Assembly: GCA_024679065.1 (NCBI GenBank)
Contig: JAGIQG010000008.1
Span: 79,918,001-79,982,000, forward strand
DNA: 64,000 bases
Reading direction: 5' to 3'
Source of the DNA: Sphyrna mokarran
Lineage: Eukaryota
Shown piece after piece: positions 1 through 64,000 of this stretch (positions are counted from its first letter, which is position 1; every line of letters begins with the position of its first letter). The notes under the pieces are model-generated. The model saw only the letters and a program-made list of their open reading frames with translations. It had not been told where the DNA came from and made no database searches. The position numbers and the translations under genes are program-made.

Positions 1-3000
1 CCAACCCAGTTTATATAAGTCTCAATCCAACCCAGTTTATATAGTCTCAATTCAACCCAGTTTATATAGTCTCAATCCAACCCAGTTTATATAGTCTCAA
101 ACCGACCCAGTTTATTTAGTCTCAATCCAACCCAGTTTATATAAGTTACAATCCAACCCAGTTTATATAAGTTACAATCCAACCCAGTTTATATAAGTCT
201 CAATCCAACCCAGTTTATATAGTCTCAATTCAACCCAGTTTATTTAGTCTCAATCCAAACCAGTTAATATAGCCTCAATCCAACCCAGTTTATATTGTCT
301 CAATCCAACCCAGTTTATTTAGTCTCAATCCAACCCAGTTTATATAGTCTCAATCCAACCAAGTTTATATAGTCTCAATCCAACCCAGTTTATATAAGTC
401 TCAATCCAGCCCAGTTTATATAATTCTCAATCCAACCCAGTTTATTTAGTCTCAATCCAACCCAGTTTATATAAGTCTCAATCCAACCCAGTTTATATAA
501 GTCTCAATCCAACTCAGTTTATTTAGTCTCAATCCAACCCAGTTTATATAAGTCTCAATCCAACCCAGTTTATATAGTCTCAATCCAACCTGGTTTATAT
601 AGTTTCAATCCAACTCAGTTTATATAAGTCTCAATCCAACCCAATTTATACAGTCTCAATCCAACCCAGTTTATATAGGTCTCAATCCAACCCAGTTTAT
701 ATAAGTCTCGATCCAACCCAGTTTATATAAGTCTCAATCCAACCCAGTTTATATAAGTCTCCATCCAACCCAGTTTATATAAGTCTCAATCCAACCCAGT
801 TTATATAAGTCTCAATCCAACCCAGTTTATATAGTCTCAATCCAACCCAGTTTATATAGTCTCAATCCAACCCAGTTTATATCATCTCAATCCAACCCAG
901 TTTATATAGTCTCAATCCACCCCAGTATATATAGTCTCAATCCAACCCAGTTTATATAGTGTTAATCCAACCCAGTTTATATAAGCCTCAATCCAACCCA
1001 GTTTATACAGTCTCAATCCAACCCAGTTTATATAGTTTCAATCCAACCTAGTTTATATAAGTCTCAACCCAACCCAGTTTATATAAGTCTCAATCCAACC
1101 CAGTTTATACAGTCTCAATCCAACCCAGTTTATATAGTTTCAATCCAACCCAGTTTATATAAGTCTCAACCCAACCCAGTTTATATAAGTCTCAACCCAA
1201 CCCAGTTTATATAAGTCTCAATCCAACCCAGTTTATATAAGTCTCGATCCAACCCAGTTTATGTAAGTCTCAATCCAACCTAGTTTATATAGTCTCAATC
1301 CAACCCAGTTTATATAGTCTCAATCCAACCCAGTTTATATAAGTCTCCATCCAACCCAGTTTATATAAGTCTCAATCCAACCCAGTTTACATAAGTCTCA
1401 ATCCAACCCAGTTTATATAAGTCTCAATCCAACCCAGTTTATATAGTCTCAATCCAACCCAGTTTATATAATCTCAATCCAACCCAGTTTATATAGTCTC
1501 AATCCAACCCAGTTTATATAGTCTCAAACCGACCCAGTTTATTTAGTCTCAATCCAACCCAGTTTATATATCTCAATCCAACCCAGTTTATATAAATCTC
1601 AATCCAACCCAGTTTATGTAGTCTCAATCCAACCCAGTTTATATAGTCTCAATCCAACCCAGTTTATATAGTCTCAATCCAACCCAGTTTATATAGTCTC
1701 AATCCAACCCAGTTTATATAGTCTCAATCCAATCCGGTTTATATAGTATTAATGCAACGCAGTTTATATAGTCCCAAACCAACCTAATTTATATAGTCTG
1801 AATCCAATCCATTTAATATAGTTTCTATCCAATCCAGTTTATACAGTTTCAATCCAATCTGGCTTATATAGTCTCAGTCCAACCCAGTTTATATAGTCTC
1901 AATCCAACCCAGTTTATATAAGTCTCAATCCAATCCAGTTTATATAGTCTCAGTCCAACCCTGTTTATATAAGTCTCAGTCCAACCCTGTTTATATAAGT
2001 CTCAATCCAACCCAGTCTATTTAGTCTCAATCCAACCCAGTTTGTTTCGTCTCAATCCAATCCAGTTCTCTAGTCTCAATCCAATCCAGTTCTCTAATCT
2101 CAATCCAATCCAGTTTTCTAGTCTCAATCCAATCCAGTTTTCTAGTCTCAATCCAATCCAGTTCTCTAGTCTCAATCCAATCCAGTTCTCTAGTCTCAAT
2201 CCAATCCAGTTTATTTAGTTTCAATCCAATCCAGTTTATATAGTCTCAATCCAACCCAGTTTATATAGTCTCAATCCAACCCAGTTTATATAATCTCAAT
2301 CCAACCCAGTTTATATAGTCTCAATCCAACCCAGTTTATATAGTCTCAAACCGACCCAGTTTATTTAGTCTCAATCCAACCCAGTTTATATATCTCAATC
2401 CAACCCAGTTTATATAAATCTCAATCCAACCCAGTTTATGTAGTCTCAATCCAACCCAGTTTATATAGTCTCAATCCAACCCAGTTTATATAGTCTCAAT
2501 CCAACCCAGTTTATATAGTCTCAATCCAACCCAGTTTATATAGTCTCAATCCAATCCGGTTTATATAGTATTAATGCAACGCAGTTTATATAGTCCCAAA
2601 CCAACCTAATTTATATAGTCTGAATCCAATCCATTTAATATAGTTTCTATCCAATCCAGTTTATACAGTTTCAATCCAATCTGGCTTATATAGTCTCAGT
2701 CCAACCCAGTTTATATAGTCTCAATCCAACCCAGTTTATATAAGTCTCAATCCAATCCAGTTTATATAGTCTCAGTCCAACCCTGTTTATATAAGTCTCA
2801 GTCCAACCCTGTTTATATAAGTCTCAATCCAACCCAGTCTATTTAGTCTCAATCCAACCCAGTTTGTTTCGTCTCAATCCAATCCAGTTCTCTAGTCTCA
2901 ATCCAATCCAGTTCTCTAATCTCAATCCAATCCAGTTTTCTAGTCTCAATCCAATCCAGTTTTCTAGTCTCAATCCAATCCAGTTCTCTAGTCTCAATCC

Positions 3001-3551
3001 AATCCAGTTCTCTAGTCTCAATCCAATCCAGTTTATTTAGTTTCAATCCAATCCAGTTTATATAGTCTCAATCCAATCCGGTTTATATAGTCTCAATCCA
3101 ATCCAGTTTATATAGTACTAATGCAACGCAGTTTATATAGTCCCAAACCAATCTAATTTATATAGTCTGAATCCAATCCATTTAATATAGTTTCAATCCA
3201 ATCCATTTAATATAGTTTCAATCCAATCCAGTTTATACAGTTTCAATCCAATTTATGTAGATTCAACCCAGTTTATGTAGTCTCAATTCAATTAGTTTAT
3301 TTAGTGTCAATCCAATCCCCAATCCAGTCAATATAGGCTCAATCCAATCCAGTTTATTTAGCCTCAATCCATTCCTGTTTATATAGTCTCAATCCATTCC
3401 TGTTTATATAGTCTCAATCCAATCCAGTTAATATAGTTTCAATCCAATCCAGTTAATATAGTCTCAATCCAACGCAGTTTATATAGTTTGAATCCAATCC
3501 AGTTAGTACACTTTCAATCCATTCCAGTTTACATAGTCTCAATCCAACCCG
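1..3551. repeat. Satellite array of 24-26 bp units (AGTCTCAATCCAACCCAGTTTATAT[A]) in the TPH1 intron after coding exon 5; truncated by the window edge
   Basis: Directly visible tandem units (roughly 140). Includes an 822 bp higher-order duplication and decays toward the right end. Confidence 0.98.
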
Positions 3552-4006: not shown

Positions 4007-4120
<114 letters not shown>

Positions 4121-4641
4121 CTAAGAGTACCAAAGTGCATTTCAAAAGGCCTGTCAGAATGTAGTGAACTGTTTAGACCTAGGATATCCCAGGTTCAATC
4201 TCTGCCCTGTACTGAAATAGCCAATGTTGCTCCAGGCAGTAGGGTTATCAACATTGGTCACCGCACCCCAGGAATAAGATCAACACATTCCCCATCTCCA
4301 TCTATTGGCATCCCCTGCCCCCCAAACCTCTCCTCCAGCTCCAGCTGCAAAGTGGGTTTCAAATCAGAGGGGAATTAGTTCAAATGACCCATAGACTGAC
4401 ACGATTGTAGCTCACATGTGCAGGGCCCGACTTTAACTTTGTGCAAGTGGGTAGATAAAATAATAAAGTAGAACCTCAACAAAAGAGTGACCATTGGATG
4501 AAGTGAGAGAGATCTGGCTAGAAACAGTCACAATCCAGAGGAAGGGAGAAAGCACAAGCAAAGAAGAAACAAAAGCTCAGCAAAAGCAAAAAAAAGTATC
4601 AGTTTGGAATTAGCCATACTGCCACATTCTCTAAACCATGC

Positions 4642-4894
4642 CACAGAAGCATAGAATCCCTAGGTGATTTGACCCATTAAGCCTGCACCTATAAAATCCC
4701 AGTCAGACACTACATCCATAACTCCAGGTATTTACCCTTCTAATCCCCCCAACCTGCACATCTTGGGACACCACAAACGCACGCAGGCATGTGAAGAATG
4801 TGCAAACTCATACAGACAGTCACCCAAGGCCACAATTGAACCTGGGACCCTGCTATGAAGCAGCAGTGCCAGCCACTGCACTACCATGCCATCC
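4642..4894 (-). mobile_element. HE1/V-SINE-type tRNA-derived SINE, internally deleted
   Basis: Reverse complement shows a tRNA-like head with GGTTCAATT B-box, the GAGTTTGCACATTCT core and a GGGATTCTATG tail. Confidence 0.85.
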
Positions 4895-5495
4895 ATTGAG
4901 AACACTGAGACATAGACAGCTCCCAACACTGGAAGAACACATTGTAGTCATTATTGTTAATATAGTCTCTGATACCAAGGAGAAATTAGTGAATCCTCGT
5001 AGGAAGAAAGATCTGTGAATAAAATTTATCCAGTTCACTATCATATGGTTTAAAACTGGGCAAGTGCTGAATAGTTTCCTGCCCTTTCAGCTCAAAGGGT
5101 CAATTCTGCATTTTTTTAAAACACTTTATCAGAAGGGTGTTTTAATTTTTCAATTAAAATATTATCATTCATTAGATGTCTGCTGCAAAATAAAGCATTC
5201 TATTCCCAACACTGATATTCCTGAACACAGGAATTCATCTTAAAATTCAAAGTGCACCACTGTATTTATTCTTGAATGTCAGCTCTACTTCTATAACTTT
5301 TACAGAACAATTACCCGCTGGGAGAGGGGATATCAACATTAAACCATCATGAACACTTCCCAGTTCCCAACTAAGGAGTGGCATAAACATCATTGTGACA
5401 ATATTTTATGTAAAGTATCCAAACAGAGCTGAAGAAAATAAATAGGAGAAGAGATGAGTTTCCCCCCCCCACTCCACCCCCTTGGCATTTCATAC

Positions 5496-13297: not shown

Positions 13298-13620
13298 GGC
13301 GGCATGGCAACACAGTGGCCAGCACTGCTTCCTCACAGCGCCAGGGACCCAGGTTCAATTCTCAGCTTGGGTCACTGACTGTATGGAATTTGCACTTTTT
13401 CCCATGTCAGTGTGGATTTCCTCCACGTGCTCCGGTTTCCTCCCACAGTCCAAAGATATGCAGGTTAGGTGGGGATTGGCCATGCTAAATTGTCCCTTAG
13501 TGTCAGGTGAATTAGTAGGGTAAACACATGGGATTATGGGGTTAGGGCCTGGGGGGGATTGTGGTCAGTGCAGACTTGAAGGACTGAATGGCCTCCTTCT
13601 GCACTATAAGATTCTATGAT
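13298..13620 (+). mobile_element. Full-length HE1/V-SINE-type SINE
   Basis: GGCGGCATGGCAACACAGTGG...GGTTCAATTC head, V-domain (TGCTCCGGTTTCCTCCCACAGTCCAAAGA), LINE-derived tail GAATGGCCTCCTTCTGCACTATAAGATTCTATGA. Confidence 0.92.
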
Positions 13621-20099: not shown

Positions 20100-20392
20100 T
20101 AGGATAGCACAGTGGCACAGTAGTTAATACTGCTGCCTCACAGTGCCAGGGACCTGAATGTAATCTGGCCATAGGTTACTGCCTGTGTGGAGTTTGCATG
20201 TTCCTCCCCTGCCTGTGTGGATTTCCTCCCACAGCCCAAAGATGTGTGGATTAGGTGGATTGCCATGCCAAATTGCCCCTTAGTGGTGGGGATTAAGTGG
20301 GGTTACAGGGATAGAGCCTGGCTAGGATTGTTGTCGGTGCAGGTTCAATGAGCTGAATGGCCTCATTTTGCACTATAGGGATTCTATGATCT
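20100..20392 (+). mobile_element. HE1/V-SINE-type SINE nested in the L1-like RT
   Basis: GCACAGTGGCACAGTAGTTAATACTGCTGCCTCACAG head, GGAGTTTGCATGTTC core, GGGATTCTATGA tail. Confidence 0.88.
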
Positions 20393-60692: not shown

Positions 60693-61145
60693 TCTCCAGG
60701 ATGTTGCCCAGAATGGAGGTATTAGATATGAGGAGATATTGAATAAACTGGGATTGTTCTCCCTGGAAAGACAGAGGCTGAGGGGTGACCTGATAGAAGT
60801 TTACAAAATTATGAGAGGTATAGAAAGCGTGAATAGTTGGAAGCTTTTTCCCAGGGCAGAAATGACAATTACAAGAGGGCACAAGTTCAAGATGGGGGCG
60901 GGGGGGAAAGGTTCAGTGGAAATATGCGAAGGAAGTATTTTTTTACACAGTGGGTAGTGGGAGATTGGAATGCACTGCTAAGTGAGGTAGTTACATTAGC
61001 CACATTTAAGATTTATCCTCATGGACATATGAACAAACGGGGAATAGAGGAATATAAGTGGTTAGTTAGATAGGTAAATGTGATTGGCGCAGGCATGGAA
61101 GGGCAAAGGGCTTGGACTTGTTCCTGTGCTGTACTGTTCTTTGTT
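60693..61145 (+). mobile_element. CR1/HER1 LINE 3' end with short 3'UTR
   Basis: NKLGLFSLERQRLRGDLIEVYKIMRG, TRGHKFK, FFTQWVVGDWNAL; tail CCTGTGCTGTACTGTTCTTTGTT. Confidence 0.92.
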
Positions 61146-62035
61146 GTTTTTGCCTACCAGTTGCTATAGTGTCTTTAGCTAATGAGGTCCACAGTCTGGA
61201 CTTTTCCCTTTGAAACCATTCGGACTCCCAGCTCTCTCTCATTCTTTTAATAGCCATAGGTGGAATTTTTAATTCTGGGACCAAGTCCAATGGGAGAGGC
61301 AGACTTCCACATTGGTCCAGACATAATCTGGACCAGTTTATGTTCCTGCTGGCGGCGTGGACAGTCAATGGGGTTAGACAATTCACATTGTCCTCTGGTG
61401 AAAACATGACCTATCATGGCAAGTAAGAGCAGAAGATCTCACCATCATTTTTACGCTGGCAGAAAACTTATTTTACAACTGTCACATTGTCCCCCTCATC
61501 CAGTATTAAACCCACCACGGAGGGAATGGAAAAGTCTGTCTCATGTCTTTGAGGATGCACGAGAGCACTCTTGCTAATATTTCCTTTTCTATTTTCTTTC
61601 TTTAAGCTTTTGTGAAGTGTCCTGGGCTGTTTTTCTACATTAAAGACATTGTATAAGTTGGTTGTTGTTGTCCATGAGCCTAGTCACCAGCATTAGTAAA
61701 ATTATCACTCTCCCTGGTATCTTGGCACGGACTGTAGACAGGCATCTGTTTTAGTTTCAGTTTCAGTTTCTGTTCTAGGCAGCCCAGAGAACCTGTTAGA
61801 GTGCAAATCATGTCTTTTCTTTTGTTTAAAACCCACAAGAATAGGAACAACAGGTATCATCTGTTACCCAGCCCTCACCCTGTTCCTCCTGGTGTTAGAA
61901 TATGAGAAATGGGATCGGTGAAGCATTAAAGCATCATGCCAGCTACAGCATACAGTGAATTCACATGCAGAAAGCTGTGTCTGGCCTGGATATTGAGAAA
62001 ATGAAAGCATTTACAGTTGATGTAAGCATGTAAGT

Positions 62036-63291
62036 CAATCCTGATAAATGTGAGGTGATGCATTTCAGGAGAAAAAATGTAGGGGGGAGGTATATGATAA
62101 AGGGTAGACCTATTAAGAGTATAGAAACACAGATGGACCTGGGGGTGCAGGTGAACAAGTCTCTGAAGGTGGCAGAGCAAGTGGAGAAGGCTGTGAAGAA
62201 AGCATATAGTATGCTAGCCTTTATAGGAAGGGGTATAGAGTACAAGAGCTGGCCTTCAATGTTGCAGTTGTATAAAACGTTGGTTAGACTTCATTTGGAA
62301 TACTGCGTCCAGTTCTGGTCGCCTTACTACCGGAAGGACGTGGAGACTCTGGAGAGAGTGCAGAGGAAGTTTACCAGGATGCTGCCTGGTATGGAAGGTC
62401 TGAGTTACGAGGAGAGATTAGGCAAATTGGGACTGTTTTCCTTAGAAAGACGTAGACTTAGAGGAGATCTGATAGAGGTGTACAAGATTTTGAAGGGATA
62501 GATAGAGTAAACAGGGCTAAGCTTTTTCCTAGGATGGACTCGAATAGCACGAGGGGTCACGGGCTTAGGGTGAGGGGGGTAAGGTATAATTTGGATGCTA
62601 GAGGGAGTTTTTTTCACACAGAGGGTGGTGGGGGTATGGAATGCGCTGCCAAGTAAAGTGGTGGAGGCAGGTAGTCTGGAGTTATTTAAGAAATACTTAG
62701 ATGGGCACATGAACAGAATGGGAATGGAGGAGTATAGAAAACTGATTTAAAATAGGGATCATGAGCTTTGGGAGTCCCTGGAAAGTGTGTAAATAGATGA
62801 TGATATTGATGTACTTGTTTTTATCCTACAGGTGCTTTGGTCCACCTTGTTGTTTAACGAGGGGCATACACGCGATGGGTCGTGAGAGGGCTGCTCTTGG
62901 ATTTTTTTCAAGAGTATCCTAGTGCTTCACATCGTTAGTGTACGCTTGACCTGGACCATTTGATGGGCAACACGACAGTGCAGTGACTATCGCTGTGCTG
63001 TGCAGATACATGGATTTGGGCCTGTGTCTGTGGGAGTTTGCGCATTCTCCCCGTGCGTGCGTGGGTTTTCTCCGGGTGCTCCGGTTTCCTCCCACATCCC
63101 AAAGATGTGCTCTTAGGCTAATTGGCAAAACAATTTCTCCCTAAATTGTCTCAAATTTGGTTTTTAATCCATAGATCTATAAACATGGACAGGGATCGCG
63201 TGTAGAAGTGGGAACATCGAGGTGGCAGCATGGGCTCGTTGGGCCGAAGGGCCTGTTTCCCGTGCTGTTTTGTTCTTTGTTCTTTGTTCTT
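62036..63291 (+). mobile_element. Young 5'-truncated CR1 LINE with a long 3'UTR containing a V-SINE core
   Basis: 148-aa open CR1 ORF2 segment (LYKTLVRLHLEYCVQFWSP) continuing through two single-base indels to TAA at 62748-62750. V-domain at ~63020-63125, (GTTCTTT)n tail, TGTAAGT at both flanks. Confidence 0.9.
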
Positions 63292-64000
63292 TGTAAGTAC
63301 ATATTAAGGTCATGCAATGATACATGGGGTGCAATCGATGTCCTTCAATCCTGGGGACGCTGTTGATTGCATATCATTGGTCCAGATTTTATGGGAACAT
63401 GGCCTGGTGTACATTTTCCTCCACCCTTCAACTCAAAAATGTTTTGTCCTATTAATTACTGGGAGTGTAGACTGATAATAGAGTGACATGGGCAACAGGG
63501 CATCTGGGATTTTCTTCAACCCATGACGTTTAAGGTTCAAGAAAGTAACAATGGAATGATGGAGAAAGAAATATGGTGAATTAAAGCCAAATCAGATACA
63601 GAAAGTGAGGGAGAAAGATTGGATTAAAGAAAGGAAAACAAAAGTCACAAAGGAAAAAAAAACTTGAATAAAAATTTGCTACTTGTATTAATGACACTCC
63701 ACATTTGAGATTGTTGGCTTTCCAGACTGCAGAGATTGAATGGCATTGTAGGAACATAACTCTCCTGATTGTCTGTATGAAGTTTAAAGTGACATGGCAT
63801 CAGAGAAAAGGTTTGTTTACAAAATTGATGTTTAAGAAATAGGAGAGAGAAAGCAGCAAGTTGCTCAGTTGTAGATGGTTGATTTTTGGATTGGAGGGTA
63901 GTAGCCAATGGGGATGCCCAAAGTCAATATCAAAGGATTACCATTCCTTTCATTGTACATAAATGGCTTTGATTTTGGAATTTGGCATAAAATATCAGAA

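Follow-up and report, generated by a model that had tools for sequence, protein, structure and literature searches.

The window, i.e. the whole 64,000-nt stretch of Sphyrna mokarran DNA analysed here, contains on its forward strand a 5'-truncated copy of a CR1 LINE, in the 3'UTR of which part of a V-SINE is embedded. The copy begins with the 3' end of ORF2 (62036..62750, assigned from translations; stop codon TAA at 62748-62750), followed by a lineage-specific post-stop spacer (62751..62805), a splice-acceptor-like motif kept in all lineages aligned (62806..62832: TTGAT, a pyrimidine tract and CAG/G, with the junction at 62831/62832), and a long predicted hairpin closed by GGTCCA/TGGACC (62838..62958, evaluated by folding against shuffled sequences). 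Downstream lie a remodelled SINE-derived tRNA-like head (62965..63014, with GGGCAAC at 62965), recognised by colinearity with the free SINE through lineage E described below, an 18-nt deletion over the B-box that was located by lineage alignment (63014/63015), and a V-domain core (about 63015-63104) with a 3' extension (63015..63142 in total), which matches the free tRNA-headed SINEs of the genome. A lineage-specific post-V spacer (63143..63223), in which the SINE tail is not recognisable, and the LINE terminal stem-loop with (TGTTCTT)n (63224..63291; 39-43/44 identical between lineages) complete the element. We take the core to be a V-domain, and the boxes of the head to be A- and B-boxes, by their motifs; the clade name CR1 likewise follows C-terminal motifs together with the ORF1 type.

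The initial annotation, made from the letters alone, had placed the ORF2 stop, the head without B-box, the V-like core and the single tail at coordinates that all hold. It had also contrasted the long UTR with one of less than 100 nt in a neighbouring CR1, and indeed this copy (60693..61149, stop at 61071-61073 by translation), which is a separate insertion and falls outside the V-bearing clade in the tree, has a UTR of only about 75 nt. The approximately 210 nt that had been called unique UTR sequence turned out to consist of a variable spacer and a conserved hairpin. The window copy is dead; its ORF2 bears two compensating one-base indels (a loss after 62497 and a gain at 62608), and the ORF2 fragment alone matched no Pfam family. 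It differs from the majority sequence of its family at 29/1248 sites, evenly spread. Six free and older V-SINE copies are also present in the window (56341-56238, 13367-13461, 18315-18229, 4818-4775, 5877-5831 and 20180-20246).

TGTAAGT is found on both sides of the copy (62029..62035 and 63292..63298) and is a probable 7-nt target-site duplication. At the position of the 5' repeat, 28 of 35 other copies read GATGGAATT, and most longer copies have the element's own TGGAATT there, so the repeat is probably host DNA; one copy, L055, is only one base away from TGTAAGT, and the first three bases of the repeat fit the tail as well, the TGT of the right repeat overlapping (TGTTCTT)n. The left flank (62020-62035) is a near-tandem of ATGTAAGC and ATGTAAGT, which slightly weakens the reading as a target duplication. 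Among 20 unbiased family copies, flanking repeats of at least 5 nt occurred in 8 (21% in shuffled sequences) and those of at least 7 nt in none, showing that the target duplications of this family are either short or missing; the flanks, cited earlier in favour of movement as a unit, are thus real but weak evidence, and we discarded target-site duplications as proof of it.

Movement as a unit was instead established from the copies themselves. A query spanning the ORF2-UTR-head junction gave 40/40 scored matches at 97-98% or better, and 28 of 29 other loci continued to the tail in one piece, one being interrupted. When ORF2 only was used as the query, 24 of 29 loci were in one piece, 3 in two pieces and 2 broken off in the UTR, with no short-UTR copy among them. 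A 22-mer of the head had 22,671 exact matches in the genome (control: 0). The 5' ends of the first 30 copies by position, which include two duplicated pairs, were scattered (26 in ORF2, 3 in the UTR and 1 at the head), indicating by the 29 that start upstream of the head that the SINE part does not move alone; another set, in which 29/29 started upstream, was biased by ranking and is not relied on. In a blind sample of 59 pieces of 10 kb (590 kb), 15/15 hairpin matches continued into the head, none of 108 other V matches had a LINE-type tail, and the counts extrapolate roughly to 70,000 modules in the genome. Starts at the head, by which an independent V-SINE would be recognised, were seen in 1/30 positional and 0/15 blind copies, and no free SINE with the LINE-borne head type was found in the 30 positional copies or the 590-kb sample. 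We therefore rejected the module as an independent V-SINE, given that its B-box is deleted in lineages A, B and C and mutated in E and that copies rarely start at the head. These data show that ORF2, spacer, hairpin, head, V, spacer and tail are copied as one unit; the proposal of a LINE subfamily that moves with a promoter-less SINE body was borne out by shared junctions and one-piece copies across loci, and the order ORF2-UTR-V-tail recurs in many copies with different flanks. Near-full-length copies are about 4.6 kb long and contain a 5'UTR, an esterase-type ORF1 and an endonuclease-RT ORF2; as expected of CR1, 5' truncation is variable and the 3' end is fixed, with a stem-loop and a microsatellite. 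The two duplicated pairs (L104/L119 and L105/L118, contig C1) are identical including their flanks and represent a segmental duplication or an assembly duplicate. In the family A copy L063, an internal deletion (about 62949-63159) removed head and V, and the tail is present.

The V-bearing elements fall into lineages A (the window family), B, C and E, each tied to its own ORF2, with further intermediates as single copies. Divergence from the own majority was 3.0% in A, 1.8% in B, 1.1% in C and 9.3% in E, figures that are low because the copies were top matches, and the distance from stop to acceptor was 81, 103, 18 and 168 nt, respectively. A tree was built from the 3'-terminal 378 nt of ORF2; in it, the 11 rows with V formed one clade with E branching first (support 94/96, just under the starred level), and its sister was a short-UTR CR1 (100/100). 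This tree comprised 25 rows selected from 140 ORF2 ends, namely the four majority sequences, individual V-bearing copies, and short-UTR copies, of which three had the TATG tail and the others did not. It superseded our first ORF2 trees, which did not place the short-UTR copy L057. Judged by their ORF2 ends, at least four ORF2-bearing lineages that carry the SINE module are one clade, a variant of CR1 with a V-bearing 3'UTR. Rather than being recent, the capture is an old one that at least four lineages have in common; the young age suggested earlier from retained CpGs does not extend to it, though the window copy does keep 29 of 34 family CpGs. Contigs of another organism cover the hairpin and head but not the spacer of A, with a different tract upstream, indicating that the V-bearing clade is not confined to this genome.

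In lineage C, 2 of 20 fetched loci had an ORF2 of 989 codons and one, L262, had both frames open. Its ORF2 matched RVT_1 (3e-34) and Exo_endo_phos (4e-14) in Pfam, and its ORF1 (313 aa) gave Lipase_GDSL_2 at E 1.3e-6, its 29.4 bits falling short of the curated cut-off of 32.9; an esterase-type ORF1 is described as a CR1 feature in the accessible text of PMC13343379. Family A copies had the same ORF2 domains, none of them unbroken in 20+20 long loci. Lineage C is probably the youngest lineage. Top matches in the C loci (L207-L220, L251-L270) were 99-100% identical, some with open frames, and these copies have A-rich terminal runs instead of (TGTTCTT)n and an AT-rich post-V spacer. A TATA-like word (GGGAGTATAAAA) occurs internally in the 5'UTRs of lineage C and family A, about 130-150 nt from their start.

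The SINE source of the module was recognised through lineage E, whose sequence aligns colinearly with the majority of the free SINE from head to V (154/199) and retains the complete tRNA head, including remnants of both the A- and the B-box, in front of the conserved core, the order of parts by which a V-SINE is defined. In E the B-box is changed to GGTCGGATCTCC, and a single 18-nt deletion over the B-box is common to A, B, C and the intermediates; by this alignment, the B-box is shown to have been first mutated, in lineage E, and later deleted. Compared with the free SINE majority of the genome, the head was 55-65% and the V core 82-88% identical (74-79/90), in agreement with the earlier impression that V was kept better than the head. 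The head had further been described as decayed; it does lack the B-box, but it was remodelled early and then remained 80-94% identical between lineages, with only the B-box loop removed. Between lineages, identity was 88-94% for the V core (79-85/90), 89-98% for the tail, 66-86% for the hairpin, 58-84% for four-fold ORF2 sites and 26-57% with many gaps for the post-V spacer. V was better conserved than the four-fold sites in A-B (85/90 vs 43/68, p 8e-7) and A-C (81/90 vs 42/63, p 7e-4), and the difference reached p<0.05 in five of the six lineage pairs, which are non-independent and have small samples of 34-79 four-fold sites (B-C: p 0.053). By the same comparison in A-C, the hairpin sequence was no better kept than four-fold sites (p 1.0). 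After insertion, V changed by 1.7% and its neighbours by 1.6-1.9% (non-CpG), indicating that V mutates like its neighbours and that low mutability does not explain its conservation.

A sister family that differs from E by 26/273 nt in ORF2 (14 of 40 scored loci) indicated the site of capture. Its UTR of ~60 nt reads TAG-TTGGACCAATGA followed by the same tail, and is predicted to form two structures, a small hairpin that spans the stop codon and, downstream of it, the terminal stem-loop. E copies have TGGACCAATTGA directly before the SINE head, and the E tail matches that of the sister LINE at 48/56 positions vs 36/57 for the free SINE, which suggests that the SINE entered the linker between two ancestral LINE stems and that the tail is the LINE's own. 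The SINE had been supposed to be captured as the 3'UTR; head and V do lie inside the UTR, but they do not form its 3' end. The end of the hairpin 3' arm, TGGACCAT, matches TGGACCAAT after the stop of the sister LINE, and spacer and hairpin appear to have been inserted just after the stop. No intermediates with only the hairpin or only the SINE were seen, and a search for the origin of spacer and hairpin gave 321 matches across the 1.81 Mb of DNA retrieved, and no other element was among them. Short-UTR CR1s were as common as V-bearing ones in the blind sample (10 vs 7 ORF2 ends), showing that the module is not needed for the success of a CR1. Free V-SINEs in a random sample (L172-L190, L311-L350) had at least two types of tails, the ATTCTATG type (74 matches) and one ending in AATAAA (20 matches), indicating tail exchange among them.

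Two parts of the module are predicted to fold, in addition to the LINE terminal stem-loop, whose consensus structure is common to the lineages. The hairpin at 62838-62958 in the window had a z score of −5.26 (0/200 shuffles), and the four lineage majorities gave −2.7 to −4.9; neither one E copy nor one mis-framed C piece exceeded the shuffles. Among 13 copies, 94% of cells pair and 5 pairs were changed on both sides, a number reached in 1/500 shuffles with relatedness not controlled, and RNAalifold on 13 single copies returned another inner hairpin fold with a small covariation term (−1.1). No fold above shuffles was obtained for 62751-62834 (z +1.5) or the post-V spacer (z +1.45). For head plus V, the same four-way junction was predicted in the A, B, C and E majorities (167/172 cells paired), with weak z scores in B (−1.4) and C (−2.0) and double-sided changes among lineages at 1/43 pairs; three head/V pairs differ on both sides between the LINE and a 9-copy free-SINE majority. 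The junction was the best predicted fold of a 14-copy free-SINE majority but not of a 30-copy one. The B-box deletion removes the tip of one predicted arm and leaves its base. An Rfam search with three loci (lineages E, B and C) gave one chance match (E 0.93) that lay beyond the module.

In every lineage the module is bordered on its 5' side by a branch-point-like word, a pyrimidine tract and CAG/G, and in lineage C this 18-nt acceptor-like motif is all that remains between stop and hairpin. Of the 65 copies in which bases ahead of the acceptor were altered, 30 were inspected and no donor exon common to them was found, using a pattern that needed AG before the junction and a reference without 5'UTR. 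A search for spliced retrocopies of lineage C gave 0 matches, and none of 13 joints listed for contigs of four runs ends at 62832; this comparison covered 62036-63020, the RNA status of two of the runs is a guess, and the contigs carry no strand or level. In L240, mid-ORF2 is joined to the acceptor position over a 7-nt microhomology, an ambiguous ORF2 join. The C 5'UTR has donor-like words, AAG/GTAAGA and ACG/GTGAGT, before the ORF1 start (L267, oriented about 1724-2050; L254, oriented about 3145-3500).

Taken together, we consider it likely that the window holds a dead, 5'-truncated copy of a CR1 clade whose 3'UTR contains a SINE head and V-domain, derived from one old capture and kept for a function as folded RNA. 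By insertion or template switch, a SINE would have come to lie in the short sequence that links the stop-codon hairpin to the terminal stem-loop, an event to which a GC(A/G)GCAC word common to the SINE start and the tail stem perhaps contributed. Once the B-box was lost, Pol III would no longer transcribe the 3' end into a competing SINE. Pairing between head and V is predicted to give a four-way junction, the third arm of which would keep its base after the deletion, and purifying selection on master elements would maintain this head-V fold. Because V was kept after loss of the Pol III promoter, a role in the RNA is favoured over one in transcription, most likely RNA stability or presentation of the tail to ORF2p. 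More tentatively, the V-domain might in general be an RNA-structure module that, paired with the tRNA-derived head in a four-way junction, raises the stability or copying of any retroposon RNA carrying it. An autonomous CR1 could have taken it from its own parasite, removed the Pol III switch at the tip of one arm and maintained the fold along successive lineages up to one that is still intact, which would make it the first LINE with a demonstrated domestication of a SINE core.

Among other readings, it seems unlikely that the module is a neutral passenger of one capture, the likeness of which was preserved not by selection but by recombination or conversion among LINE lineages or with free SINEs. 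It has been proposed that the conserved domains of SINEs act as hotspots of recombination (PMC5804259, accessible text), free V-SINEs are about seven times commoner than the module (108 vs 15), and short-UTR CR1s thrive without it; but the LINE-borne V keeps common marks that are missing from the free SINE majorities, module and ORF2 agree in joining B with C and setting E apart, the V-tail spacer is unalignable while both of its sides are kept, and spacers were trimmed from 168 to 18 nt where the module never was. We also regard as rather improbable a terminal exon in which the conserved acceptor works, either in removing the ORFs from a 5'UTR donor or in defining the 3' end, V being kept as part of the exon. 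This would account for a motif retained in every lineage behind a changing spacer, for its survival in C as the only sequence left after the stop, for contigs of another organism in which the same tract follows a different sequence (loose end at 62828), and for the two donor-like words in the C 5'UTR, but it is opposed by the lack of a common donor exon in the 30 altered copies read (L240 being ambiguous), of any lineage C match and of a listed joint at 62832.

The direction of transfer could also have been the reverse, with V native to the CR1 3'UTR and borrowed by SINEs, an origin of SINE bodies from the UTRs of LINEs having been proposed (PMC5786205, accessible text). This is very improbable, as the tRNA head of E is complete and still shows remnants of the A- and B-box, V is missing from the sister and from every outgroup CR1, and V-SINEs reach cnidarians according to the accessible part of PMC4824008. 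Practically no weight is left for a SINE that landed by chance behind or inside a CR1 at the window locus; nested insertions are common in the genome (for instance L127 and L250), but the same junctions with different flanks in tens of thousands of places refute it.

The V-domain is conserved in SINEs from cnidarians to fish. We presume the names HE1 for the V-SINE and HER1 for the CR1 of sharks and rays. HE1/HER1 are reported as a shark SINE/LINE pair (PMC3747384, accessible part) and, compared by description, resemble the present case in that a CR1 LINE and a tRNA-headed V-SINE with related stem-loop tails occur in one genome, but here head and V lie inside the LINE UTR, B-box and SINE tail are lost and the LINE tail is kept. 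Capture and spread of a V-SINE body by another mobile element is known from the MER6/MER6A MITE, which unlike the present LINE belongs to the non-autonomous DNA transposons, spreads with no RNA step, retains the SINE tail but not the SINE head and, in the accessible text, has no sign of selection on V (PMC6887750). SINE-like sequence inside a LINE is described for RTE-1_DAn (a tRNA-like sequence) and Ingi-3_AC (a Ceph-like 5'UTR piece, for which recombination with a SINE was suggested); these belong to other LINE clades and, as far as the accessible part of PMC5786205 goes, have no V-domain, no head and body in the 3'UTR and no lineage series. The stringent LINEs ZfL2-1 and ZfL2-2 similarly end in a 3' stem-loop and microsatellite, theirs bound by ORF2p, and no 270-nt folded module upstream of the stem-loop is described in the accessible text (PMC4176376). 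A LINE with a V-SINE in its 3'UTR was not found in published descriptions, with subscription journals, supplements, Repbase and Dfam lying outside the search; the accessible parts of PMC13343379 and PMC5499810 contain nothing on it, that of PMC5804259 (2016) states that no such domain was found in LINEs, and consensus sequences in the supplements of PMC5786205 and PMC13343379 may bear on novelty.

The function of the V-domain is given as unknown in the accessible text of PMC4824008. Here a conserved SINE domain sits inside a LINE and diverges more slowly than silent sites, by which its proposed function as folded RNA becomes testable; lineage C copies with both frames open, and the sister family as a control without the module, would allow a retrotransposition assay of the standard kind. 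What annotation would record as a V-SINE is, in tens of thousands of cases in this genome, the end of a LINE. Nesting of V-bearing CR1 copies within other CR1s or SINEs is frequent (L127, L250, L240 and L307), and in L127 (oriented about 1450-3220) and L133 (oriented about 4030-5330) all three frames are open over 300-570 codons, probably owing to simple repeats.
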